DNA of 32,000 nucleotides. It comes from Erysipelotrichaceae bacterium. GTDB taxonomy: Bacteria > Bacillota_I > Bacilli_A > Erysipelotrichales > Erysipelotrichaceae. How positions within the stretch are numbered: position 1 is the first letter of the stretch; every line of letters starts with the position of its first letter. The stretch spans positions 1,290,001-1,322,000 of the forward strand of contig OY781039.1 in the NCBI GenBank assembly GCA_963676105.1, given 5' to 3'. A program made the position numbers and the translations under genes. A model generated the notes under the pieces. The model was not told the origin of the DNA and ran no database searches. It saw only the letters and a program-made list of their open reading frames with translations. Shown here in pieces: positions 19-32,000 of this stretch.

Positions 19-912
19 TCATCGAACACTCCGTAAGTAACGTGTCACAGAAATAAAACTACCAAATAAACCAATCACAATCCCTAGCATCACAAGTAAA
101 TATGAAAGTTGTAGAACAAAGGGAAAGACTGCTCTTAATCTAAATAATTCAGCGAATAATACACCATCTAAGACTTCATACAAACGATTATATCCCCAAA
201 TGGTTAAACCAACAGGAATCAATGATCCAAACAAACCAATAAAGATTCCTTCAAACAAAAATGGTGCCCGTATAAAATTGTTGGTTGCACCAATCGTACG
301 CATGATTTGAATTTCATGACTTCGATTTTGAATCGTTATTTTAATCGTATTAACAATTAATATAAGCGCAAGTAATCCTAATGCGCCAACTAAAATAAAA
401 CCACCATCCCGTACGTTATGTAAAAGGTCTACTAATTGTATGGTTGAATTACCACCATAGTTCGCCTTTAAAACACCAGTCATATTCGCAATACTTAAGG
501 TTGTGCTTTCAATTTGTAGATTATCACTGAGTTCAACAATAAGTGCATTCTTTAAAGGATTATTTTCACCTCGATACATTTCAAAGATGACACCCTCTTC
601 ACCATAAGATTCGATAAACTTATCGAGTTCTGCATCCTTAGATGAATACTCTACATTGATGACAGCGGGTAATTGTTTAATTTCATTTTCAATCGTTGAA
701 ACATTATCAATCGTATCTTCAAGTTGTACATGGATTTGAATCTTATCTTCAACTGTTGTGGTAATCTCTTGAATATTTACGGTTAACATCATAAAAAGTG
801 AGACTAAAAGCAAAGTCACACTTACCGCAACCATGGATGAAAAACTCATTGAAAAATGGCGTACAAAACCATAGAAGGCTTCTTTAATCGGCCGCATCAG
901 ATAATTCAACAC
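19..912 (-). CDS. ftsX: FtsX-like cell-division ABC transporter permease
   Basis: 297-aa ORF overlapping the 3' end of an FtsE-like ATPase gene. It has one N-terminal TM helix, a large external loop, then three C-terminal TM helices (FtsX topology). The start is uncertain: GTG at 912 (AAGGAGG 11 nt upstream) or ATG at 897. Confidence 0.8.
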   Translation of the reverse strand: MLNYLMRPIKEAFYGFVRHFSMSFSSMVAVSVTLLLVSLFMMLTVNIQEITTTVEDKIQIHVQLEDTIDNVSTIENEIKQLPAVINVEYSSKDAELDKFIESYGEEGVIFEMYRGENNPLKNALIVELSDNLQIESTTLSIANMTGVLKANYGGNSTIQLVDLLHNVRDGGFILVGALGLLALILIVNTIKITIQNRSHEIQIMRTIGATNNFIRAPFLFEGIFIGLFGSLIPVGLTIWGYNRLYEVLDGVLFAELFRLRAVFPFVLQLSYLLVMLGIVIGLFGSFISVTRYLRSVR

Positions 913-3870: not shown

Positions 3871-5701
3871 ATAAATTATTCTCTGCAAACTCAATTCTTT
3901 TCTTTGCATCCATTTCAATGCCCTCACCATCCACTAAGATGACTGATCCATCTTGATAGCGTGAATCAAAGTAAATCGCATTTGGAAAAATCTCTGTCGC
4001 ATTCCATAGATATGGTGTTGGCAAATAACCTGCTTCATATATATTATAAAAACCTTGAGCACTTAAATAATTGTCGACATGTTTTTCGATGGATTTAAGA
4101 ATAATTTTGGTTTCAGATACAAAGTGCTTTGTCAGTTTTTTGATATCCTTTTCAAAAACGGTACAATCTATTTTCTGTTCTTGTTTTTGTTTACGATAGT
4201 AGTCAATCGCAGAACAGGTAATTTGAATGCTTTCATTCATAACTTTTGGATTTGCCATATACAGCGCTTCTGAATAAGAAACCACATGTACAATAGGAGG
4301 ACTATTCTTCACTTCAGGTTCAATATCATCCATCAACATGCTGACCATGGCGAGTTGTTGTTTTGCTTTTTTTTCATCAGGTGAAAAGAAATCTAAACCC
4401 GCTCGTGGTTGAAGCATCACATTAAAGTCTTTTCCTTCTAAAGGTTTAATGAGTTCTAAGATCGCACGTGCTTTGGCGATATCTGTAATGCCCCAAGTAT
4501 ATCTTGGTGTGTTCAACATCACTTGTAGGATAAAGTCTTGTACACCATGTTTCTTTGCTAAGCGTGCCGCAAGTACGGCTGATAAGATATAAGTCACATC
4601 ATCTGCCCCTCTAAAGGCAAAGTGATGTGGGGTATTAGGTTCATACGGTTTTTTTGTATCCGCGATAAAATCTAAAGCTTTAACACTTTGTTTAAGATTA
4701 GTCAGTAAGTCATTAGGACCTCTTCCATCTAATTGATTAAACCACCATAAAGACAAAGCATGCCAAGCAATATTTAAACTTCTTTCATGAACATGCGCTA
4801 AATCATCGACGTGGTTTGTGCCTGAATAGGTACGTACTAACATGGGTCGACTAGCATCATAAATCGCATCATACTCTAATTCATTTTGAATTGGAACTCC
4901 ACCACCATTAGCGCTATCACCCCAGTTTTCATTAAATCGTGATTGTGTGAGTTGTGATGATCCAATAGATAAGATATCTAGATGTTTAGACTCAGCTAAT
5001 TCTTTACACCAATCTTTAAAGTCTTCTAAAGCTTTGAGTCTTTCTTGATGATAAGGTCCTACATGAAGTCGTGTTAATGGAGAGTTCGATGTTTTTCGAT
5101 GATGTTTTAATCGTAATACTAGACTATCTTTCTTTGTCCCAAATTCTGTATAGTCTTCATTTTTGATGACTCTATAGTTTGGATCAAAAGTATCCATAAA
5201 ATCATGGGCTAAAGACATCAGCTTATGATCATACTCAGATCCCTTAATAAGTGATTCTGGTATTTCATCTTCTTCTAAATCCAGCATCCTTAAAACATCC
5301 GCCATCTCTTCAGAACCTACAAATGTAATAACACGATTATTAAATGCTTCATTTATTTTTAGACACGAATTTGGTAAACCCGCAAAATAGATTTTTTCTA
5401 ATAATCCACCATTCTCTTTAAAGATATAGTTTGCCTCACAAACTTCAATAACTGTTCTTACAGTATTTAGGGCATCCTTCTCATCTAATCGATAGGATAA
5501 ACCTAGATGGGTTATATGATGATCAATCAACCAGTTAGCTAGGTCATCTTTATTTTCGATTTCACCTAAGTGATTCGTTTTTGAGATTTGTTCATCGGCT
5601 AGAAATACAATTTGATCACAGGCATTTAACTGACTCTTTATCGCATTAATCCCTAAGGTATGCGCATCATGAATCGGTTTTAAAAGTCCATAGCGTCTCA
5701 T
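3869..5701 (-). CDS. Cobalamin (B12)-binding-domain protein with a large uncharacterised C-terminal domain
   Basis: N-terminus RRYGLLKPIHDAHTLGINAI contains the DxHxxG cobalamin-ligand loop after a beta-strand-like segment. GLSYRL and FAGLP follow at roughly the positions of the SxL and GG motifs. The remaining ~460 aa is unassigned. There is no CxxxCxxC radical-SAM motif. Its ATG overlaps the upstream stop (ATGA). Confidence 0.5.
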   Translation of the reverse strand: MRRYGLLKPIHDAHTLGINAIKSQLNACDQIVFLADEQISKTNHLGEIENKDDLANWLIDHHITHLGLSYRLDEKDALNTVRTVIEVCEANYIFKENGGLLEKIYFAGLPNSCLKINEAFNNRVITFVGSEEMADVLRMLDLEEDEIPESLIKGSEYDHKLMSLAHDFMDTFDPNYRVIKNEDYTEFGTKKDSLVLRLKHHRKTSNSPLTRLHVGPYHQERLKALEDFKDWCKELAESKHLDILSIGSSQLTQSRFNENWGDSANGGGVPIQNELEYDAIYDASRPMLVRTYSGTNHVDDLAHVHERSLNIAWHALSLWWFNQLDGRGPNDLLTNLKQSVKALDFIADTKKPYEPNTPHHFAFRGADDVTYILSAVLAARLAKKHGVQDFILQVMLNTPRYTWGITDIAKARAILELIKPLEGKDFNVMLQPRAGLDFFSPDEKKAKQQLAMVSMLMDDIEPEVKNSPPIVHVVSYSEALYMANPKVMNESIQITCSAIDYYRKQKQEQKIDCTVFEKDIKKLTKHFVSETKIILKSIEKHVDNYLSAQGFYNIYEAGYLPTPYLWNATEIFPNAIYFDSRYQDGSVILVDGEGIEMDAKKRIEFAENNL

Positions 5702-6762
5702 TTTGGGAAGTATTCTTCAAAGAAGCCTTTCACATTTTGTCGACCGATGACACTAAAATCAATATAGTAAAGTGAGTTCGCGAGTTCTAAGACTAAATCC
5801 ATATGTTTATGAGGTGTATTTGCTAATTTAGCTAACTCAAGCATGGGCACAATTCCAGTTGGAATATCTTCATAGATATATCGAGTGGTGATATCTGTTG
5901 GTGATAGTATTTCATCATATTGCGAGGTTGCTTGTAGTCTTAAATATAAGCTTTCACCTTGAGATCCATATACAATATCTAACCATTCAAATGCACTAGG
6001 AATATCTATCCCAAATGCTTTCGCAAGCGCTAATCTTTCTTCATCTAGTTTTTCAATCATATTCGCAACTAAAGGAGTAATCCCTTCTTTATAGTGATGA
6101 TAAGAATCACCACATTCAATACGGGTTAGATTCATGAGTGCTGGAAATGGATGAAACAACATGCCGATATTTGAAAAGGATGTTGTTAAAACAGAATCTT
6201 CCATTTGAATCATATTGAAACTTGGTTTTAAACAGTTATAGATAATTTCACTGTGTTTTGGATTAAGCGCTGCAACTCTTAACTTTTTCTTACGTGAAAA
6301 GATTTGTGATACACCCGGTCTAACTCTTCGTGAAGTGAGTACAAAAGTATCTGTTTCACAGATCGGGATATCTAAGTCACATCCAGCATTTACTAAGTAC
6401 TGCTTAAATAAATAAGCACCTAAAGTACGACCAGGATTAATCACAATTTTATGGTTTTCTTTAAGTAAGGGTGCCATTTGAATCGCAATATCTTCATGAG
6501 CATGGGCAGGAATACAAATCATAATAATATCTGATTGGTCTAAGGCATCTTTTAAAATATGGGTTGCACTTATATTCTTAACCATGGTTTCGATCATGCC
6601 ATGAAGTTGTACGCCTCCCATGGAATTGATTTGATCAATAACCGTTTTAGTCCGATTAAATAAAACTGTTGGATTTGAAAGATGGGCTAAATAAGCAGCC
6701 AATGCTTGGCCACCATGACCAGCCCCAATTACACAATAATTTTGTTTTATTAGACTTGTCAT
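5698..6762 (-). CDS. NAD(P)-dependent octopine/nopaline (opine) dehydrogenase family protein
   Basis: Rossmann motif VIGAGHGGQALAAYLA. The C-terminal opine-DH signature region is FSNIGMLFHPFPALMNL...YKEGITP...LDEERLALAKAFG. ATG at 6762 has AGGAGG 5 nt upstream. The ORF-track extension to 6834 is unlikely to be translated. Confidence 0.7.
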   Translation of the reverse strand: MTSLIKQNYCVIGAGHGGQALAAYLAHLSNPTVLFNRTKTVIDQINSMGGVQLHGMIETMVKNISATHILKDALDQSDIIMICIPAHAHEDIAIQMAPLLKENHKIVINPGRTLGAYLFKQYLVNAGCDLDIPICETDTFVLTSRRVRPGVSQIFSRKKKLRVAALNPKHSEIIYNCLKPSFNMIQMEDSVLTTSFSNIGMLFHPFPALMNLTRIECGDSYHHYKEGITPLVANMIEKLDEERLALAKAFGIDIPSAFEWLDIVYGSQGESLYLRLQATSQYDEILSPTDITTRYIYEDIPTGIVPMLELAKLANTPHKHMDLVLELANSLYYIDFSVIGRQNVKGFFEEYFPK

Positions 6763-22540: not shown

Positions 22541-23395
22541 ATGAACATTGCAGTCCTGAGTGGTAAAGGTGGCACAGGTAAAACATTGGTTTCAGTTAAT
22601 TTAGCTGCAGCGAGTGATAAGGCCAATTATATTGATTGTGATGTAGAAGAGCCAAATGGTGCTCTTTTTTTCAAACCGAGCAATATTAAGCAGACTGATA
22701 CCCTAGTAAAAATCCCTCAAATTAATCATGATTTATGCGCGTCATGTCGCAAGTGTGTCGATTTTTGTCGTTTTAATGCTATAGCCTTCGTAGGTAATAA
22801 ACCTTTAGTATTTGAAGAGATTTGTCACTCTTGTGGTGGTTGTTCACTTGTATGTCCACAAAAGGCTATTACAGAAAAAGATAAAGTGATTGGTCACATT
22901 GAAGAAGGTTTCAGTGACAATGTTTTTATTAATAGTGGTTTGCTCAACATTGGACAAGAATCAGGTGTACCGATTATTAATCAACTCTTATCTAAGATAG
23001 ATCATCATAATTTAAACATTATTGACTGTCCTCCTGGTAGTTCATGTTCAGTGATTGAAAGTATTAAAGATGCTGATTATTGTGTACTTGTTGCTGAACC
23101 AAGTATCTTTGGTGCGCAAAATTTAGAGATGGTTTATGACCTTGTTAAGTTATTTAATAAAAAACATGCTGTTGTATTAAATAAAACAATGGACATTGAA
23201 AATCCATCAGAGAACTTTTGTATTGAAAAAGATATTCCAATTCTTGAAAAAATACCCTTTGATCAAAGCTTAGGGAAACTTAATTCAGATGGTTTAATCG
23301 CTGTAAGAGAAAATAGTCACTACAAAAACTTGTTCTCATCATTGTTGAAAAAAGTACTAAAGGAGGCATCTAATGAAACAGTTACTCATCCTTAG
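22541..23395 (+). CDS. MinD/ParA-class P-loop ATPase with an inserted 2x[4Fe-4S] ferredoxin domain
   Basis: Deviant Walker A SGKGGTGKT, CDVEEPN, and two CxxCxxCxxxC clusters (CASCRKCVDFC, CHSCGGCSLVC). Confidence 0.8.
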   Translation: MNIAVLSGKGGTGKTLVSVNLAAASDKANYIDCDVEEPNGALFFKPSNIKQTDTLVKIPQINHDLCASCRKCVDFCRFNAIAFVGNKPLVFEEICHSCGGCSLVCPQKAITEKDKVIGHIEEGFSDNVFINSGLLNIGQESGVPIINQLLSKIDHHNLNIIDCPPGSSCSVIESIKDADYCVLVAEPSIFGAQNLEMVYDLVKLFNKKHAVVLNKTMDIENPSENFCIEKDIPILEKIPFDQSLGKLNSDGLIAVRENSHYKNLFSSLLKKVLKEASNETVTHP

Positions 23396-24224
23396 TGGTA
23401 AAGGTGGTACAGGTAAAACTACCGTCGCAAGTGCTTTTATTCGCTTACTAGATGCGAAAGCTTTTGCGGATTGTGATGTTGATGCACCAAACTTGCATCT
23501 CGTTTCTCATTTCGATCATCCTCCTCAAGTCAAAGATTATTATGGTTTAGATAAAGCACATATTAATTCTGAAACTTGCATATCATGTGGTCAATGTGTT
23601 AGTCATTGTCGATTTGATGCGATTGAAGTTAGCGATATTTATAAAGTCAATCCATATTTATGTGAAGGATGTGCTGTTTGTGAAATGGTATGTCCAACAA
23701 AAGCCATCGAAATGAAAGAAGCTGTGGATGGTCATATTGATTTATATAGAAACCATTCAACTTTCTCAACAGCTCAACTTAAAACAGGTAGTGGTAACTC
23801 TGGGTTATTAGTTACTGAAGTGAAGAAACAATTAGAAGAAAACACATCTGCAGATATTGCGATTATCGATGGTTCCCCAGGTATTGGATGCCCTGTCATC
23901 GCCTCATTAAATGCCATTGATTTGACACTAATCGTAACTGAACCATCACTCTCTGGAATCAGTGATATGAAGCGTATTATCACAACCGCTAAACGATTTG
24001 AGACAAAAATCGCAGTATGTGTAAATAAATACGATAATAATCTTCAAAACACAAAAGCCATTGAAACTTTCTGTAAAGAGAATGACTTAAGTTTTACAGG
24101 ACGTATTCCTTTTGATAAAAAAGCTATACAAAGTATAAATACATCTTCTACTATTGTAGACATAGACTGTATATCAGGCACTGCCGTTAAAGATGTCTTT
24201 CAGAAAACATTAGCGCTCTTATAA
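23373..24224 (+). CDS. Second MinD/ParA-class P-loop ATPase with a ferredoxin domain (paralogue)
   Basis: SGKGGTGKTT, CDVDAPNLH, CISCGQCVSHC, CEGCAVCEMVC. Overlaps the previous gene by 23 nt. Confidence 0.8.
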   Translation: MKQLLILSGKGGTGKTTVASAFIRLLDAKAFADCDVDAPNLHLVSHFDHPPQVKDYYGLDKAHINSETCISCGQCVSHCRFDAIEVSDIYKVNPYLCEGCAVCEMVCPTKAIEMKEAVDGHIDLYRNHSTFSTAQLKTGSGNSGLLVTEVKKQLEENTSADIAIIDGSPGIGCPVIASLNAIDLTLIVTEPSLSGISDMKRIITTAKRFETKIAVCVNKYDNNLQNTKAIETFCKENDLSFTGRIPFDKKAIQSINTSSTIVDIDCISGTAVKDVFQKTLALL

Positions 24225-25490: not shown

Positions 25491-26474
25491 TTAGTATTTA
25501 TTGTAATTAATATTTTTCTTGTTTTTGGTAGCCAGATACTCTAAGTCATTTAAATCTCTTATACCCATATTTGAACGCACATAATCAAATGATGTAATAT
25601 TTAATTCATTTTGCAAATTAATTAGGTTTGACCTCAACTGAAGAACTAATTTTTCATAATCATTTGAATTCATAAAGTACTTCAAAGAAACTAACAAATC
25701 TACTAATTGCTGTTGTGGATTGTATTTAAAATAACGTCTATCTCCTAAAATATATTCTTTGAATGGTTGTTTGAATCGAGGAGATTTGGATTTAAAAAAA
25801 ATTACTCTCTCATTATGTGCGCACGAGTTTCTAACTTTTCTAATTAGATGCAACATTGATAGTAAAAGTGAGTAATAATTTTTACCTCTTTTATCTTTTA
25901 TATTATATAACTCACACAATGCATCCAATAATTGTGGTTTCGATATCTCTACTACACTTATTAAATCCCCAAATGTTATTAATTTTGTAAATATCCACGC
26001 TGGTACTCTTCCATACTTTTTTGAATAATGAAAATTATACTCATTTGTTGACTTATCAATTGTATGAAAACACTTTGAAATTACTCTAATAATATCTTGA
26101 GTATCCTTATTGGAATTATAAGCTTGAACATCATACCATTCAACCTCTTTAGGATTAATGAAATCTAATTTATACCCAACCAAATTTCTAATTTCCTCTT
26201 CTATTCTTGTAATAACTTGCAAAAGTATAATTCTCAAATCATCATCAAATAGTTTTAAACTTACAAAAGATTCGATAGTAATACCACCAATATAAATATG
26301 ATCATTATTTAAATCTTTTCCTTGTATAAATGGCTCTTTGTATGCATTTATTAAATTAAAATAACCATACTTGATAAGAAATTCTTTATGCTTACTGCCT
26401 TCACATCTTATTTTTTTCTTATCTCTAAGATACTTCATTTGTGTATTGAAAGTTTTAAATGGTTTTTCATTCAT
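25491..26474 (-). CDS. Abi_2 (AbiD/AbiF-like) abortive-infection family protein
   Basis: 327-aa. Conserved KVRNSCAHNERV motif (RNxxAHxxR) and the overall AbiD/F-like helical pattern. Confidence 0.7.
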   Translation of the reverse strand: MNEKPFKTFNTQMKYLRDKKKIRCEGSKHKEFLIKYGYFNLINAYKEPFIQGKDLNNDHIYIGGITIESFVSLKLFDDDLRIILLQVITRIEEEIRNLVGYKLDFINPKEVEWYDVQAYNSNKDTQDIIRVISKCFHTIDKSTNEYNFHYSKKYGRVPAWIFTKLITFGDLISVVEISKPQLLDALCELYNIKDKRGKNYYSLLLSMLHLIRKVRNSCAHNERVIFFKSKSPRFKQPFKEYILGDRRYFKYNPQQQLVDLLVSLKYFMNSNDYEKLVLQLRSNLINLQNELNITSFDYVRSNMGIRDLNDLEYLATKNKKNINYNKY

Positions 26475-26568: not shown

Positions 26569-27222
26569 TTATTCCCAAAGATTAGCATTACCATAACGTG
26601 CATCAAGTTCTGCTGAGAACCAACGACCATTCATAACGTTAGAGATAACAAATTCTTTTAATCCATCAGGAATTGTAGTATCTGCATCCATCGCATCCAT
26701 GATTGCTTCATAAGATGTAGTATCATCCATTAATTCAACAATCGCAGATGTATCATCTGAATCAAATACCATTGATACAGTATTATCTACAGTGAATGCA
26801 TCCCAAGTAGCAAGTTCACCACCATTTGGATCACCTGTATCATTCAGAAGTGTTCCAAAAACAGATAAATCTATTTCATCTTTTTCAATCAAATGACTTA
26901 AGTCCTATAACTCATTATTATCAATTAATGTTGAATAAAAGCCACCCGACAACAACATCACATCGAAATACTCATCATATGTCTGTGATGGAAAGTTAAC
27001 AATCTCAACTTCTACATGAGGATATCTATTCTGAAAACTCTTAACAACTTCATTTAATATAGTTTCTTCTTCCCCTGAATCTACCTTTATATGATCATAG
27101 ACATCAAAGTCATAGTTCTTCTCAAAGTTATCAGTATTAATAACATTTTGACTACATCCACTCAATAACAAAAAACTTAGGATGACTGATATCTTGATTG
27201 TTCTATGACCTATCAATTTCAT
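26569..27222 (-). pseudogene. Lipoprotein with a solute-binding-protein-like N-terminus, split by one in-frame TAG (26905-26907)
   Basis: Lipobox LLLSGC. KSFQNRYPHVEVEIVNFPSQTYDEYFDVMLLSGG resembles the N-terminus of ABC substrate-binding proteins. The two ORF-track pieces are in the same frame: ...DNNEL*DLSHLIEKDE.... The total of ~217 codons is too short for a full binding protein. Confidence 0.5.
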
Positions 27223-27264: not shown

Positions 27265-28452
27265 TTATCTACTTTTATCGAAATTGACATCCAACCATAA
27301 TTGCAATTCATTACGATTTTTTATGCCATTTTTTATTAATATCTCAATAATATCTTTCCCTGAAACTATAATGATTGGTAACTTTTCGTTGACTACTTCT
27401 TTATATGCATCAGCATTAACATATGAAGTGGTAACCATAATACCAAATTCTCTGTGTTGGATTCTTGAGACTAGTCTTGACATAATCTTTACATCAACAC
27501 TTGAAGAAGTTTTAGGATGAAAATATTTTGCTTCAACAACAAATGTTTTCTCAATATTATTCTTTGAATTTCCAATTCTATAGGTTCCTATTGCATCTTT
27601 ACCATGATCCTTAAAATAACTAGTACCTTCTATATCTATAATATTTTGATCCATGAACAAAACAATTTGAATTGCGCATTTTTCAAATGCGTACCCATCA
27701 TTAAAATATTCAGCTAATAAAAGCAACATTTTGCCTTCTTCAGTATTAAAATCTGGAATTTGTTCTATTTTTGATCTATGAAGAATTGGATTCTTTTCTG
27801 TAATTAGGGGAGAATATTTCCCTTTATTAATCCATTCTAACCAAACTTTAGGTGCATGTTCACTTGTATTCGCATGTCCAATTAAAACATCGTTCAACCA
27901 TTCACGAGGTATTTGTGGGATATCTAAAATTGTAAAAATAGATTTGTAATTTTGATATCGCCCTTCTGAGTTTTGTGCCCAAACAATCTCTAAAGTTTCA
28001 TTAATGTTAATGTTTTTAGATCCTAAAACTGCTAATCCTAAGAACATAATATCTCGACCGGCATACTTTTTAAAAATAAAAACTGGTGGTATATTTTCTC
28101 GTTTACCATTCATTAGTTTTTCAAATGAATCTGATAAAAAAGTGTTTCCTTTAAATTTCGTGTTATGTATAGGGTTCCCAGCAGTTCTATTGTCTCCCCA
28201 ATAAGTAAAAGTTCCTAAGGTTCTGTCAATTTCATCGCGCCATTCTAGCTCTTCACCACTTGTATAAATGCATATATAAGCAAAACCAGGTTTTTTAACA
28301 TTATATTTTTTCTTCCGAAAGCCTCCTGAATTTTGAACTCCAAGAAGTTTTGTCAAAACTTCACCACTTATATTCTTTGAATCATTTGAACAATATACTG
28401 CATCAACAATCAAATCTGTATCAGTAAGTTTGCTAAAATCTACTCTATGCAT
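27265..28452 (-). CDS. Restriction endonuclease: C-terminal Mrr-like PD-(D/E)xK domain plus an N-terminal DNA-reader domain (possibly SRA/PUA-like)
   Basis: The C-terminal segment GKDAIGTYRIG...FVVEAKYF fits D...EAK, followed by GIMVTTS (Mrr_cat-like). ATG at 28452 has GGGGGAA 5 nt upstream, so it is preferred over 28482. The gene is divergent from a C5-MTase gene. Confidence 0.65.
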   Translation of the reverse strand: MHRVDFSKLTDTDLIVDAVYCSNDSKNISGEVLTKLLGVQNSGGFRKKKYNVKKPGFAYICIYTSGEELEWRDEIDRTLGTFTYWGDNRTAGNPIHNTKFKGNTFLSDSFEKLMNGKRENIPPVFIFKKYAGRDIMFLGLAVLGSKNININETLEIVWAQNSEGRYQNYKSIFTILDIPQIPREWLNDVLIGHANTSEHAPKVWLEWINKGKYSPLITEKNPILHRSKIEQIPDFNTEEGKMLLLLAEYFNDGYAFEKCAIQIVLFMDQNIIDIEGTSYFKDHGKDAIGTYRIGNSKNNIEKTFVVEAKYFHPKTSSSVDVKIMSRLVSRIQHREFGIMVTTSYVNADAYKEVVNEKLPIIIVSGKDIIEILIKNGIKNRNELQLWLDVNFDKSR

Positions 28453-28546
28453 TGTAGTTCCCCCAATTTTATAAGTAAGCATGTTTCATTTTTTAATAAA
28501 ATATTTATATACAAGATATAACTGTATTTTTTATTGATAATTAAAG

Positions 28547-28566
28547 TTTATCAAGATCTTGATAAA
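28547..28566. promoter_or_regulatory. Perfect 20-bp palindrome TTTATCAAGATCTTGATAAA in the divergent R/M promoter region
   Basis: All 10 positions pair. The right half supplies the TTGATA -35 box of the MTase promoter. An extra TTGATAA half-site is at 28534-28540. Confidence 0.6.
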
Positions 28567-28587
28567 TTAAACAAATAATTCTAATAT
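28559..28587 (+). promoter_or_regulatory. MTase promoter TTGATA-17-TAATAT, placed for a leaderless or near-leaderless transcript
   Basis: The -10 ends 8 nt before the A of the ATG at 28595. No Shine-Dalgarno lies between them. Confidence 0.4.
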
Positions 28588-28594
28588 TGATATT

Positions 28595-30265
28595 ATGAAA
28601 AATAAAAAATATACTGTTATAGATTTTTTTTGTGGTGCCGGAGGATTTTCAACAGGGTTTGACTTAAATGGTTTTGAGGTAATTATGGGTATTGATAACT
28701 GGGCGCCTGCCATCAAAACTCATAACGCAAATTTTAATCTAGAAGATACACCAATAGATGTACTTAAATTTAATGACATCAACAAAATATTTGAATTACC
28801 AGATACGGATATTATTATCGGTAGTCCCCCATGTGTTGTTTTTTCAACATCAAATAAGGGGGGGAATTCAAATAAGCTAGATGGTTTAAAACTTATTAAG
28901 ACATATTTAAAAGTAATAGCAGTAAAGAAATATAAAAATAATTCAAAATTAAAAGCTTGGCTTATGGAAAACGTTCCCAATGTGGGTAAATATATGAACG
29001 ACACATATACTTTTAGTGATTTGGATTTAACTGAATGGGCAATTTCTAGTGGATATAATCCAGAAATGGTAGCTCTAGACCTTAAGAATAAACAACATAT
29101 TGTTAATTCCTACAATTATGGTTCTGTTCAGAAGCGTTTAAGATATATTTGTGGTGAGATAATTGAATCAAATAAATTTCCAGAATTACATCCAATTGTA
29201 AATAAAAAAACAGTAAACTCGATTTTTAAAGATTTTCCAAAACCAAATGAAAAAAGTTTGACAAAATTCGAAAATATAGTTGATCCTAATTACACAAGTA
29301 TAAAAATTTCAAATTCATCGCTACACGATCATTTTTATGATACTGGTGTTTATAAAGTTGAATGGAAAAAAGCAATGGAAGCTAAACTTAATCACCCTTA
29401 CATGGGTAAAATGTCTTTCCCAGAGAATCTAGACAAAGAAGCTAGAACAATTATGGCAACCATGTCAGCGAGTAGTAGAGAATCCATATTAATAGAATCT
29501 GAAATTAGCAGAATTGGTGATGGACAATATAGATTATTAACTGTAAGAGAAGCCGCAACAATTATGGGTTTTCCAATTAATTATCAATTTTATGGAAATG
29601 AATCTTCAAAATGGAGACTTGTTGGTAATGCTGTAGTTGTACAACTTTCATATACTTTAGCAAAATCAATAAAGAGTAATTTAGGTTTGAATTTTCAAGG
29701 ATCTAAGATGAAAAAACTAGATTTTTCTGACTTCATATTTTTTGATAATTTTGAATTAAAGGATTTTAATAATCCACCTAAAAGAAATCCAAATAGTATA
29801 TTTCGTCTCCATCCAATAAAAGCAGGAAATATGACCGTAGAATTAACGAATAGATTATTAGTTAAATATCAAGACAAAACAATTTCAAAAAAATGGAAGA
29901 TAGTTATTAATGTTGGAACTGGGAAAAAAGCCAGACATATACTTATACATGAGAATCATAAGCTTGAAGCAGAGGAATTACTATTAAAACATTCACCTAT
30001 TTTTTTGGAAGAATTAAACAATGACAAAGTTATTCACAAATATACTGATTCACATTTTAACAATCAAAACAGAGAATATGGCTATATATCTGAATCAAGA
30101 ACACATCCATATAATCTTGTATACAAAATCAAAAATCATATTGAGAATCAGACAGACAATACAATTTATCTTAATCCAGAATTAGAATTATTCAAAATTA
30201 AAGCAACGATGCCACTTCATCAATTGATGGCTATTTATGCACTGGGTAAACTTTTGTACAGTTAA
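28595..30265 (+). CDS. DNA (cytosine-5)-methyltransferase with a ~200-aa C-terminal extension of unknown function
   Basis: Motif I DFFCGAGGFSTGF, IV GSPPCVVFS, VI MENVPN, VIII GSVQKRLRY, IX RLLTVREAATIMGFP, X VGNAVVVQL. Residues ~360-556 lie beyond motif X. Confidence 0.85.
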   Translation: MKNKKYTVIDFFCGAGGFSTGFDLNGFEVIMGIDNWAPAIKTHNANFNLEDTPIDVLKFNDINKIFELPDTDIIIGSPPCVVFSTSNKGGNSNKLDGLKLIKTYLKVIAVKKYKNNSKLKAWLMENVPNVGKYMNDTYTFSDLDLTEWAISSGYNPEMVALDLKNKQHIVNSYNYGSVQKRLRYICGEIIESNKFPELHPIVNKKTVNSIFKDFPKPNEKSLTKFENIVDPNYTSIKISNSSLHDHFYDTGVYKVEWKKAMEAKLNHPYMGKMSFPENLDKEARTIMATMSASSRESILIESEISRIGDGQYRLLTVREAATIMGFPINYQFYGNESSKWRLVGNAVVVQLSYTLAKSIKSNLGLNFQGSKMKKLDFSDFIFFDNFELKDFNNPPKRNPNSIFRLHPIKAGNMTVELTNRLLVKYQDKTISKKWKIVINVGTGKKARHILIHENHKLEAEELLLKHSPIFLEELNNDKVIHKYTDSHFNNQNREYGYISESRTHPYNLVYKIKNHIENQTDNTIYLNPELELFKIKATMPLHQLMAIYALGKLLYS

Positions 30266-30284
30266 ATAATTTTTATATTATTTT

Positions 30285-30293
30285 TGATATAAT
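30285..30293 (+). promoter_or_regulatory. Extended -10 element TGATATAAT upstream of the ParB-like gene
   Basis: It lies 22 nt upstream of the ATG at 30316, with the AAGGGGGT RBS in between. Confidence 0.4.
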
Positions 30294-30315
30294 CAACTAA
30301 GGGGGTACTTAAATC

Positions 30316-31686
30316 ATGAATAGAGAGAATAGAATAGAACAAATAAAAAAAATTACTTCTAATGATGAGCTGAAATTTGGAAAAGAAGAAATTGTATGGG
30401 AAGACTCACTGCAATCGATGGATGTTCGCAAAATTCCACTACAGTATTTGATTTACAACAAATATAATGGTCGTATTTTAACTCGAACTAAATCATTAGA
30501 AGCACAAGGAAAAGTAATTGATGCAGAGACTGATACTGGGAAATTAATTATAGAAAAATTACTTTGGGAATCTAAACCGGAAAGAAACAAAACAACAAAA
30601 AACGATTTAGAAAAATATGGTCAAAAAAGAATAGGAATTGTCACTGCTGATGGAATCATTATTGATGGTAACAGAAGAGCAATGTTACTAAATCAAATTG
30701 ATAAATATGATTATTTCAAAGCAATAGTCTTACCTGTCAGATTAGATGAAAATCCTATTGAAATAGAAAAGCTTGAAACTTCTTATCAAATGGGTGAAGA
30801 CGAAAAGCTTGGATACAATGCTAATGAAAAATATCTAAAAGCAAAAACCTTAAGGGAACGCGGGGTTCCAATCGACACAATAGCTAATTGGATGGGTGAA
30901 TCAAAAAGTGAAATCGAAAAGTATTTACGTACTATGGAAATCATGGATGATTATCTCGACTTCTTTAGTTACAACAATATGTATACTCAACTAGATGGTC
31001 GTGAAGATTTATTTTTATCGGTCGAAAAATGGACGAATAATTTTTATGGTTCAAATTCCGCAAAGGCTTTTGATGGATATAGTGATAACGACGTTGATGA
31101 CCTAAAAGCAATTTGTTACGATTACATTAGATCTGATATAGATGGTAAAACTTTTAGAAATATTGCAGAAGGCAATCAATCATCACATGTTTTTGGAGAC
31201 CAAGAATTGTGGAGAGATTTTTCCGATAAACACTTTGAATTTATTCAAGAAATTAAAGATAGTGAATCAAAAATTGATTTAAATGTTCCAGATGTAGAGA
31301 AAAGTCTAAAAAGTAGAGATAACAAGTTCAAAGTAGACTCTTTAGACTATTTGCAAGAAAACCTTGATAATCAACGGAGTAGGCTTGCAAATAAAAAATA
31401 TAGAGATGAACCATCAAAATTGGTTTCTAAAGCACTAGATGCAATAGAAATTGCTTCTTCTAATAAAAACTTATCAAATCAAGAAACTGTTGATAAAATT
31501 GAAAAATTAAATACTATAACAACTAATCTACTTAAACAAAAGTCTATAACAAAATTACTTGATCATATTTACTCGCTATTAGATGGATTAGATTTTTCAG
31601 GTATTAATGATAATGATTTAGATGGAATTGAATCTAAATTAATATCAATACAAAAATTAGCATATAAATACTCGAAAGAAATCTAA
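30316..31686 (+). CDS. ParB/Sulfiredoxin-like N-terminal domain protein with a long helical C-terminal region
   Basis: KIPLQYLIYNKYNGRI ... IGIVTADGIIIDGNRRAMLL matches the ParB-N/ParBc pattern (I.L..N.R ... y.iiDG.hR..A). The remaining ~330 aa is unassigned. Confidence 0.55.
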   Translation: MNRENRIEQIKKITSNDELKFGKEEIVWEDSLQSMDVRKIPLQYLIYNKYNGRILTRTKSLEAQGKVIDAETDTGKLIIEKLLWESKPERNKTTKNDLEKYGQKRIGIVTADGIIIDGNRRAMLLNQIDKYDYFKAIVLPVRLDENPIEIEKLETSYQMGEDEKLGYNANEKYLKAKTLRERGVPIDTIANWMGESKSEIEKYLRTMEIMDDYLDFFSYNNMYTQLDGREDLFLSVEKWTNNFYGSNSAKAFDGYSDNDVDDLKAICYDYIRSDIDGKTFRNIAEGNQSSHVFGDQELWRDFSDKHFEFIQEIKDSESKIDLNVPDVEKSLKSRDNKFKVDSLDYLQENLDNQRSRLANKKYRDEPSKLVSKALDAIEIASSNKNLSNQETVDKIEKLNTITTNLLKQKSITKLLDHIYSLLDGLDFSGINDNDLDGIESKLISIQKLAYKYSKEI

Positions 31687-31688
31687 TA

Positions 31689-32000
31689 ATGATTGATTCA
31701 TTTTATACACTATCTTTAACAGAGGATTCATTTTTAAAAATTGAAGGTGAAACAGATATATTACTTAATAATCCTAGATTGAAGATTTCATTAGCTCGAT
31801 TGCACGCTAACTACGAAGATGATTACATTTTAATACCTGTTATCGATAATAATTCAGAGTATTTAATTAGAGAAATTTCACAATTGTTATTAAAGTTTAA
31901 TTACAAATCCAAGCTTGACTCTAGCATTGATGAAATATTAGATAATTTTAGAAACGAAATGGAAAATTTTGAAATTTTTTCTAAAAAAGCTTTGGATATC
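31689..32000 (+). CDS. 5' part of an unknown ORF, truncated by the window edge
   Basis: The ATG lies 2 nt after the ParB-like stop (TAATAATG). I read 104 codons with no stop to position 32000 (MIDSFYTLSLTEDSFLKIEGETDILL...). It is absent from the ORF track because it has no stop in the window. Confidence 0.5.
   Translation, partial: MIDSFYTLSLTEDSFLKIEGETDILLNNPRLKISLARLHANYEDDYILIPVIDNNSEYLIREISQLLLKFNYKSKLDSSIDEILDNFRNEMENFEIFSKKALDI

Follow-up and report, generated by a model that had tools for sequence, protein, structure and literature searches.

A ParB-fold protein placed between a C5-methyltransferase and a SNF2-family ATPase in a widespread four-gene module: a candidate defence system resembling restriction-modification

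At the end of a stretch of 32,000 nucleotides (nt) from Erysipelotrichaceae bacterium (assembly GCA_963676105.1, contig OY781039.1, positions 1,290,001 to 1,322,000), a gene for a protein of 456 amino acids (aa) follows a C5 cytosine DNA methyltransferase (MTase) and is itself followed by a reading frame that runs off the end. The whole stretch is called the window here, and the 456-aa protein is called protein X. A sequence-only reading of the window had assigned a ParB-like fold to X and had suspected that X, the MTase, the truncated gene and an adjacent reader-nuclease form a multi-gene defence module without a name. This raises the question of what X is, which genes truly belong with it, and what they might do together. 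As described below, X is predicted to have the fold of the ParB/KorB/Noc proteins, and its gene is the second of a recurrent four-gene operon encoding a MTase, X, a SNF2-family ATPase and an effector. With confidence a little above even, the operon is considered to be an uncharacterised defence system resembling restriction-modification (R-M); confidence in the details of its action is lower.

The 456-aa open reading frame (ORF) containing IPLQYLIYNKYNGRI and IIIDGNRRAMLL is present on the forward strand at the position given in Table 1, and the coupled downstream ORF is present as well, starting with an ATG 2 nt past the stop codon of X and remaining open for 104 codons to base 32000. This second ORF was missing from the ORF list because its frame continues past the window end. 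When the 104-aa fragment was used on its own as a query, nothing was retrieved. The fragment aligns to the N-terminus of a 665-aa SNF2 helicase (31% identity, E 5e-14) that comes after an X homologue in the metagenomic contig L001, and a chimeric query, composed of the window fragment and the remainder of that L001 protein, recovered the full-length protein P0150. P0150 is a 660-aa SNF2 helicase whose N-terminus matches the window fragment in 104/104 positions, and it is encoded together with P0001, an exact copy of X, on one contig of 1,963,219 bp. The downstream ORF therefore does not stop soon after base 32000; early termination, which would have spoken against the module, is ruled out, and the truncated gene can be annotated as a SNF2 helicase. 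P0150 matches the Pfam families SNF2-rel_dom (PF00176, E 1e-27) and Helicase_C (PF00271, E 9e-9), and its motifs I, II and VI (GSGKT, DEAH and QSKDRIHR) are intact. Therefore, the gene cut by the window end appears to encode an active SNF2-family ATPase. The N-terminal domain of the protein, which is the part inside the window, was modelled as a small alpha/beta domain with a predicted local distance difference test score (pLDDT) of 82; this model had no significant match in the PDB, the best being aIF1 (E 0.02, template-modelling (TM) score 0.44-0.52).

The suspected gene set is conserved well beyond the window. According to a profile search of 1.84 billion cluster representatives, the X family comprises 1627 clusters at 50% identity (E <= 1e-3), 224 of them at E <= 1e-30, and its members are distributed in Bacteroidota, Patescibacteria, Campylobacterota, Proteobacteria, Acidobacteriota, Chloroflexota, Spirochaetota and Bacillota. 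The identity of X across phyla is about 40-53%, and this patchy spread at such identity indicates horizontal transfer. A scan of GTDB species representatives gave 137 loci with an X relative, of which 80 were kept; the source genome did not appear among them. Gene order was surveyed in 82 loci, in which ORF boundaries were set by the first start codon and are thus approximate. In each of the 81 loci whose sequence extends far enough, X is followed by a SNF2 gene, and the complete order of long C5-MTase, X, SNF2 and a NOV_C/DUF3883 gene is found in 62 of the 82, in several phyla. The closest relatives of the window X (57-61% identity) have the same four genes in the same order. Median gaps are 2 nt between MTase and X and 3 nt between X and SNF2, and in 33/33 cleanly extracted loci the SNF2 gene has an overlap of 17-41 nt with the fourth gene. 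Since the gap between MTase and X in relatives is only a few nt, co-transcription is the norm of the family. Additionally, on a 579-kb metagenomic scaffold (L086) the four-gene module lies exactly inside lepA (EF4), the two parts of which meet at the same profile position (Table 1); the module thus seems to have inserted precisely, as a 6.7-kb segment, into a housekeeping gene, and no integrase was seen.

No sequence library reproduces the assignment of X to the ParB-N-type fold. Searches of Pfam, NCBIfam, PADLOC-DB 2.0 and PHROGs returned nothing for X, its N-domain alone matched nothing in the libraries even at E up to 5, and a profile search of the PDB returned a designed helical bundle and a chance match only. 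The source names listed for its homologues all read 'hypothetical protein'. The assignment was confirmed at the level of structure. An AlphaFold2 (AF2) model based on an alignment of 61 sequences reached a pLDDT of 91 and a predicted TM score of 0.82, and the top matches of this model in the PDB by Foldseek are all of the ParB family, with probability 1.0 and E 4e-4 to 2e-2: KorB (8qa9), Noc (7nfu, 7ol9) and ParB (7bnk, 6t1f, 6sdk), with Spo0J (1vz0) and pNOB8 ParB-N (5k5d) as further entries. The structural match covers about 250 aligned columns, which include the N-domain and the helix-turn-helix (HTH), with a target-normalised TM score of up to 0.61. Against BFVD, the top matches of the model were phage ParB/RepB/Spo0J proteins. 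Alignment of X with three ParB sequences from PDB entries by hhalign gave a marginal E of 0.06 with the register as expected, and it places boxes I to III and the HTH opposite the ParB counterparts listed in Table 1. These boxes, including D117-G118-N119-R120-R121, are invariant in 61 X homologues, and within X conservation is highest in the ParB-N core. The roughly 330 aa after the N-domain had earlier been described as acidic, helical and not assignable; the C-terminal region is indeed helical in the model, and part of the remainder can now be assigned to a ParB-type HTH.

As judged from the model, X appears closer to the canonical ParB/KorB/Noc switch proteins than to DUF262/DndB or sulfiredoxin. 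With the ParB-CTPase clamps (ParB, Noc, KorB, VirB and BisD) it has in common the fold, the order of N-domain and then HTH, and boxes I-III. It differs from them in several respects: it lacks a match to the ParBc hidden Markov model, a ParA partner and a known parS; it carries a 30-residue insertion after box I; the Glu of box II is replaced by Asn (GERR to GNRR); its helical C-terminus is of another kind; and it is embedded in a methylase-helicase-effector operon. The ParB-CTPase fold can bind CTP, ATP or GTP, and the nucleotide specificity is not predictable from sequence, as indicated by a 2025 survey of this fold (PMC12704722), in which no SNF2-linked group is mentioned. From its ParB-type pocket, X would be expected to bind a nucleoside triphosphate (NTP), and clamp formation may be expected on the same grounds. 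A role in partition of the ParABS type was considered and rejected: X is flanked by the C5-MTase and SNF2 in nearly all loci, and the inter-gene gaps of few nt leave no room for parA.

The first gene of the module encodes a C5-MTase. The window MTase matches PF00145 (E 5e-42) with residues 6-360 over profile positions 1-323 of 324, scores above the cut-off of TIGR00675 (dcm), and shows FCGAGG, PPC, ENV and GNAV, that is, the motifs I, IV, VI and X of a Type II C5 DNA MTase. After the catalytic domain follows a family-specific C-terminal extension of about 190 aa, which is carried in conserved form by most family members and which, taken alone, matched no Pfam model. Over its full length, extension included, the window MTase is 50% identical to the MTase upstream of X in L001. 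A MTase lies upstream on the same strand in 70/82 loci. Its target-recognition region is conserved as strongly as the rest of the protein, suggesting a methylase specificity that is shared across the family. Among solved relatives, only distant catalytic-motif matches to M.HaeIII, M.HhaI and DNMT1 were obtained, from which no inference on specificity is possible.

In two cases, locus L082 and protein P0092, originating from a Spirochaetota metagenome-assembled genome and one further contig (European Nucleotide Archive), X is joined in frame to the C-terminal half of the MTase. Such a joined gene could be a genuine Rosetta-stone fusion, or else a pseudogene that arose by frameshift; it hints at a physical association of MTase and X. 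These fusions bear on the explanation that X is solely a transcriptional regulator of the operon, timing methylase against effector as a controller protein or as a DndB-type or KorB-type sliding-clamp repressor. The best structural matches of X do include KorB, a CTP-dependent clamp repressor, along with ParB-type HTH proteins, and DndB is a regulator of a modification system from the ParB superfamily (PMC10853773). A possible promoter element belonging to X itself would also fit. The sequence-only reading had noted an extended -10 element before X and had concluded that X can be expressed independently of the MTase. The element, TGATATAAT, is present in the spacer. The pattern TGNTATAAT, however, occurs 3 times in the window compared with 4.9 expected by chance, and a generic scan of 28300-32000 for sigma-70 promoters and terminators gave counts at chance level. 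All three matches lie 13-24 nt 5' of correctly oriented start codons, and an internal promoter for X is therefore plausible and its independent expression possible. As a separate observation, this placement suggests that the source organism uses extended -10 promoters in which the leader is very short. Against a purely regulatory X stand its large size, its rank among the most conserved genes of the set (about 50% identity across phyla), its translational coupling to SNF2 in nearly all loci, and the fusion to the C-terminal half of the methylase in two lineages. Moreover, the pairing of X with SNF2 persists at loci from which the methylase has been displaced, whereas a regulator would be expected to track promoters and not the motor. 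This explanation is thus regarded as unlikely.

The fourth gene lies outside the window. In its usual form it encodes a NOV_C/DUF3883 protein of about 324 aa with a PD-(D/E)XK nuclease domain. The NOV_C part of HmaA is a Mn2+-dependent nickase that is needed for defence (PMC11232893). In 6 loci (the L069 type), a TIR domain (Pfam TIR_2, E 1e-12) stands in place of NOV_C. The first 190 or so residues are homologous between the NOV_C and TIR variants (hhalign 98.9%, E 4e-17), so that the fourth gene product can be read as a constant N-terminal adaptor with a swappable effector domain. From all close relatives we infer that the source genome carries such an effector gene beyond the window edge.

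The vsr gene adjoins the module in 26 of the 82 loci (L004, L006, L019, L028 and L049 among them). It immediately precedes the methylase gene or, at some of the loci, follows that of the effector, and it stays with the MTase where the MTase has been relocated (L071). The window itself yielded no vsr homologue. Being adjacent to the MTase and travelling with it, vsr suggests that the methylase acts on host DNA. The same linkage could be taken to mean that X, SNF2 and the nuclease form a genome-maintenance accessory of C5 methylation, dealing in a Vsr-like manner with trapped methylase-DNA adducts or 5-methylcytosine (5mC) lesions. The strict linkage of this triad to several kinds of C5-methylase, complete Type II R-M pairs included, and the conserved target-recognition region of the methylase would be in agreement with such a role. 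TIR effectors on the same adaptor, however, make no sense for repair, and the patchy horizontal distribution, the defence-gene neighbours and the insertion into lepA are typical of conflict systems. A maintenance role is accordingly held to be distinctly unlikely.

The C5-MTases of R-M systems mark self, SNF2 enzymes translocate on double-stranded DNA, members of the ParB-CTPase family act as NTP-gated DNA clamps or switches, and TIR domains in bacterial immunity degrade NAD+. If the four proteins are combined on this basis, the methylase would mark and protect host DNA at a motif conserved across the family. X would bind a nucleoside triphosphate in its ParB-type pocket and DNA through its HTH, and would dock on the C-terminal extension of the methylase. 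At unmethylated sites, X may license or recruit the SNF2 motor, possibly as an NTP-gated clamp, and the motor would then translocate and carry or activate the effector bound through the adaptor domain. The outcome would be nicking or cleavage of DNA, or depletion of NAD+ in the TIR variants. The specific proposal, in which X is an NTP-gated ParB-type clamp or switch and the sensor of non-self, or the licensing subunit, at unmethylated sites, handing DNA to SNF2 and the effector (restriction with a nuclease, abortive infection with TIR), is put forward tentatively, as a possibility that is well short of even.

Both the general and the specific reading have to be weighed against several observations. 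What was observed is the architecture; the defence role, NTP binding and clamp formation by X, all protein contacts, the trigger and the identity of the methylation-state reader are deduced from it, and the fourth gene of the source genome is deduced from its relatives. Sequence-only support for homology of X with ParB is marginal, as seen from the hhalign E of 0.06. One locus, L040, has X, SNF2 and NOV_C without a C5-MTase within 4-7 kb, and it is the sole one of the 82 in which no C5-MTase was detectable. Several variants adjoin a complete R-M pair of Type II or a nuclease resembling those of Type II, which is Sau3AI/MutH-like in L034, L035 and L065 and BanI-like in Javan191, a predicted prophage of Streptococcus. 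In two Patescibacteria loci, SNF2 is followed by a Sau3AI/MutH-like nuclease and a short C5-MTase; in L065, a MutH-domain protein and a C5-MTase lie upstream; and in Javan191 a BanI/DpnII-like fragment precedes X, SNF2 and NOV_C, with a convergent C5-MTase downstream. These Type II neighbours imply that the triad may be an add-on to 5mC systems and not a self-contained restriction system. Finally, a distant X-like and SNF2 pair on plasmids of Enterococcus, pQZ076-2 (Table 1) among them, has no methylase, NOV_C gene or effector next to it.

The plasmid pair leads to a further explanation, namely that the module serves a mobile element in partition, establishment or anti-restriction, similar to the domain sets of polyvalent proteins. 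In such proteins, which are encoded by phages and conjugative elements, domains of the ParB, DNA methylase and SWI2/SNF2 types are repeatedly combined (PMC5512222). Distant X-like and SNF2 pairs were found on 66 Lactobacillales plasmids, where the gene before them encodes an 864-aa protein whose HTH is sigma-70 region-4-like and where insertion sequence elements follow; one such plasmid homologue of X matches Pfam ddrB-ParB at E 0.002, below the cut-off. The predicted prophage Javan191 also has one copy of the module, at its edge. On the other hand, the operon has no ParA partner and X almost always stands between MTase and SNF2, the majority of copies are surrounded by housekeeping genes in long chromosomal contigs, the nuclease and TIR effectors and vsr fit host defence, and defence cargo is common at prophage ends and on plasmids. 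Service to a mobile element is therefore considered very improbable, and a host defence system remains the preferred reading of the four genes.

Does the operon belong to a system that already has a name? In accordance with the sequence-only reading, the combination of genes corresponds to none of the named systems examined: X is unmatched in PADLOC-DB 2.0, a version older than the newest releases, the partner genes give only generic or partial matches there, and the defining parts of Hma, Menshen, DISARM and ParABS are absent. No description of the gene set was found in the full-text literature, subscription journals being outside the scope of that search. The closest analogues are Hma and Menshen. 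Hma resembles the module in that a SNF2 motor, a NOV_C/DUF3883 PD-(D/E)XK nuclease and a DNA methylase are present in one locus (PMC11232893). HmaA is, however, a single SNF2 and NOV_C polypeptide, whereas here SNF2 (about 660 aa) and NOV_C are encoded separately, by genes that overlap, in 33/33 loci extracted cleanly; HmaB is a DUF1156 methylase and the module methylase is a C5 enzyme of PF00145; and in place of the DUF499 ATPase HmaC, which the module lacks, there is the ParB-fold X, and the effector can be TIR. The PADLOC model of HmaA touches just the NOV_C part of the module's fourth gene, and weakly (E 1.5e-4).

Menshen consists of the ParB-DUF262 sensor NsnA, the ABC ATPase NsnB and the polymorphic effector NsnC (PMC12065111). 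The likeness lies in the combination of a DNA-binding protein of the ParB superfamily with an ATPase and with an effector whose N-terminal docking domain is constant while its toxic C-terminus can be exchanged. Menshen is often near methylases, whereas the C5-methylase is an integral, nearly obligatory part of the present module. Furthermore, X is of the canonical ParB/KorB/Noc kind with an HTH and has no DUF262 match, and the ATPase of the module is SNF2, not ABC. Type III R-M and class 2 DISARM resemble the module in having a self-marking methylase, which probably supplies or shares target recognition, and in using an SF2 ATPase and a PD-(D/E)XK nuclease on unmodified DNA. In Type III R-M, however, Mod methylates at N6/N4, and Res is one polypeptide with a helicase from another clade. 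The DISARM core of DrmA, DrmB (DUF1998) and DrmC (PLD) is absent here, with no match to DrmB or DrmC among the four genes; weak PADLOC similarity to DrmD, DrmA and DrmMII comes from generic SNF2 and C5-MTase domains. Neither Type III R-M nor DISARM has a ParB-fold subunit or TIR variants. Thus, the new element is the cryptic ParB-fold component, while methylation-gated helicase/effector defence is a kind already known.

If the module is a defence system, it is a common one that the annotation libraries tested do not detect, as the family spans at least 137 GTDB species representatives of many phyla, including bacteria of the candidate phyla radiation with tiny genomes. X also reveals a family with the ParB-CTPase fold that has escaped surveys based on Pfam. 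The module offers a tractable case in which a methylase, an NTP switch and a motor of the chromatin-remodeller type may cooperate, and its modular effector slot, filled by a nuclease or TIR, would help to separate sensing from killing. If the reading of X as a sensor clamp is true, this would be the first immune use of a canonical ParB-CTPase switch, and DNA-methylation sensing would be coupled directly to NAD+-depleting effectors. The pairing of a C5-methylase with a SNF2 ATPase echoes the logic of eukaryotic DNMT5 and DDM1/HELLS.

Table 1. Positions of the features discussed, in nt of the window, residues of X, or nt of another locus as indicated
Feature	Position	Strand	Evidence or remark
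C5 cytosine DNA MTase, 556 aa, module gene 1	28595..30265	+	Pfam PF00145
Candidate extended -10 element TGATATAAT	30285..30293	+	In the 50-nt MTase-X spacer
Shine-Dalgarno-like AAGGGGG	30300..30306	+	9 nt 5' of the X ATG; sequence read directly
Protein X, ParB/KorB/Noc fold, 456 aa	30316..31686	+	AF2 model and Foldseek
X stop codon TAA	31684-31686	+	Next ATG at 31689, 2-nt gap (TAATAATG)
SNF2-family ATPase/translocase, N-terminal 104 codons of 660 aa	31689..32000	+	Cut by window end
TGNTATAAT matches	1619-1627, 2708-2716, 30285-30293	-, -, +	All 13-24 nt 5' of a start codon, in the gene's orientation
X box I, YNKYNGR	residues 47-53		Aligned to ParB NPYQPR; hhalign
X box II, DGNRR	residues 117-121		IIIDGNRR aligned to ParB IVAGERRF; hhalign
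X box III, ETSYQM	residues 154-159		On ENLQRE; ETSYQM...LGYNANEKY against ParB ENLQREDLSPLEEA; hhalign
X helix-turn-helix	residues ~166-245		IANWMGESKSEIEKYLR aligned to ParB LAKRLGKSRPHIANHLR; hhalign
X C-terminal region	residues ~296-455		Long helices; AF2 model
AspBHI-like 5mC-dependent restriction enzyme	27265-28482	-	RE_AspBHI_N E 3e-54, Mrr_cat; PADLOC mREase_II E 1e-125
Two small ORFs between AbiD and the AspBHI-like gene	26569-27222	-	Very acidic 107 aa; 105 aa with lipoprotein-like N-terminus (LLLSGC)
AbiD/Abi_2 abortive-infection protein	25491-26474	-	Pfam E 3e-37, PADLOC AbiD
Two tandem overlapping MinD/ParA-like P-loop ATPase genes	22541-23395, 23373-24224	+	
L086, split lepA	4793-5863 and 12601-13560 of L086		Upstream ORF to profile position 281; downstream ORF 281 to 594
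MTase-X fusion, L082 and protein P0092	8365-11287 of L082		MTase split near residue 260-270, fusion of its C-terminal half to X, 739-749 aa
L084, Enterococcus faecalis plasmid pQZ076-2	3309-8984 of L084		X-like protein (26-28% identity, weak ddrB-ParB) coupled to SNF2

The neighbourhood of the module in the window is also rich in defence genes. The AspBHI-like enzyme, encoded divergently next to the C5-methylase, is the reader-nuclease that had earlier been counted with the gene set. Its co-conservation with the module was found in 0/82 loci, and it was rejected as a module member. As a 5mC-dependent restriction enzyme adjoining a C5-methylase, it must have a specificity compatible with that of the methylase. 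Together, the AbiD gene, the AspBHI-like gene and the module constitute a defence island. Elsewhere, in the 36 loci whose flanks were scanned, the module is accompanied by HNH, SoFic, PD-Lambda-5, TmtA, PDC-S04 and other MTases. Farther upstream in the window, the MinD/ParA-like ATPases are apparently unrelated to X and are not its ParA partners; the first of the two genes has NCBIfam matches of the 4Fe-4S ferredoxin type, and similar Cys motifs can be seen by eye in the second. The guanine plus cytosine content is 0.26-0.30 from about 25 kb to the window end, compared with 0.33-0.36 upstream.

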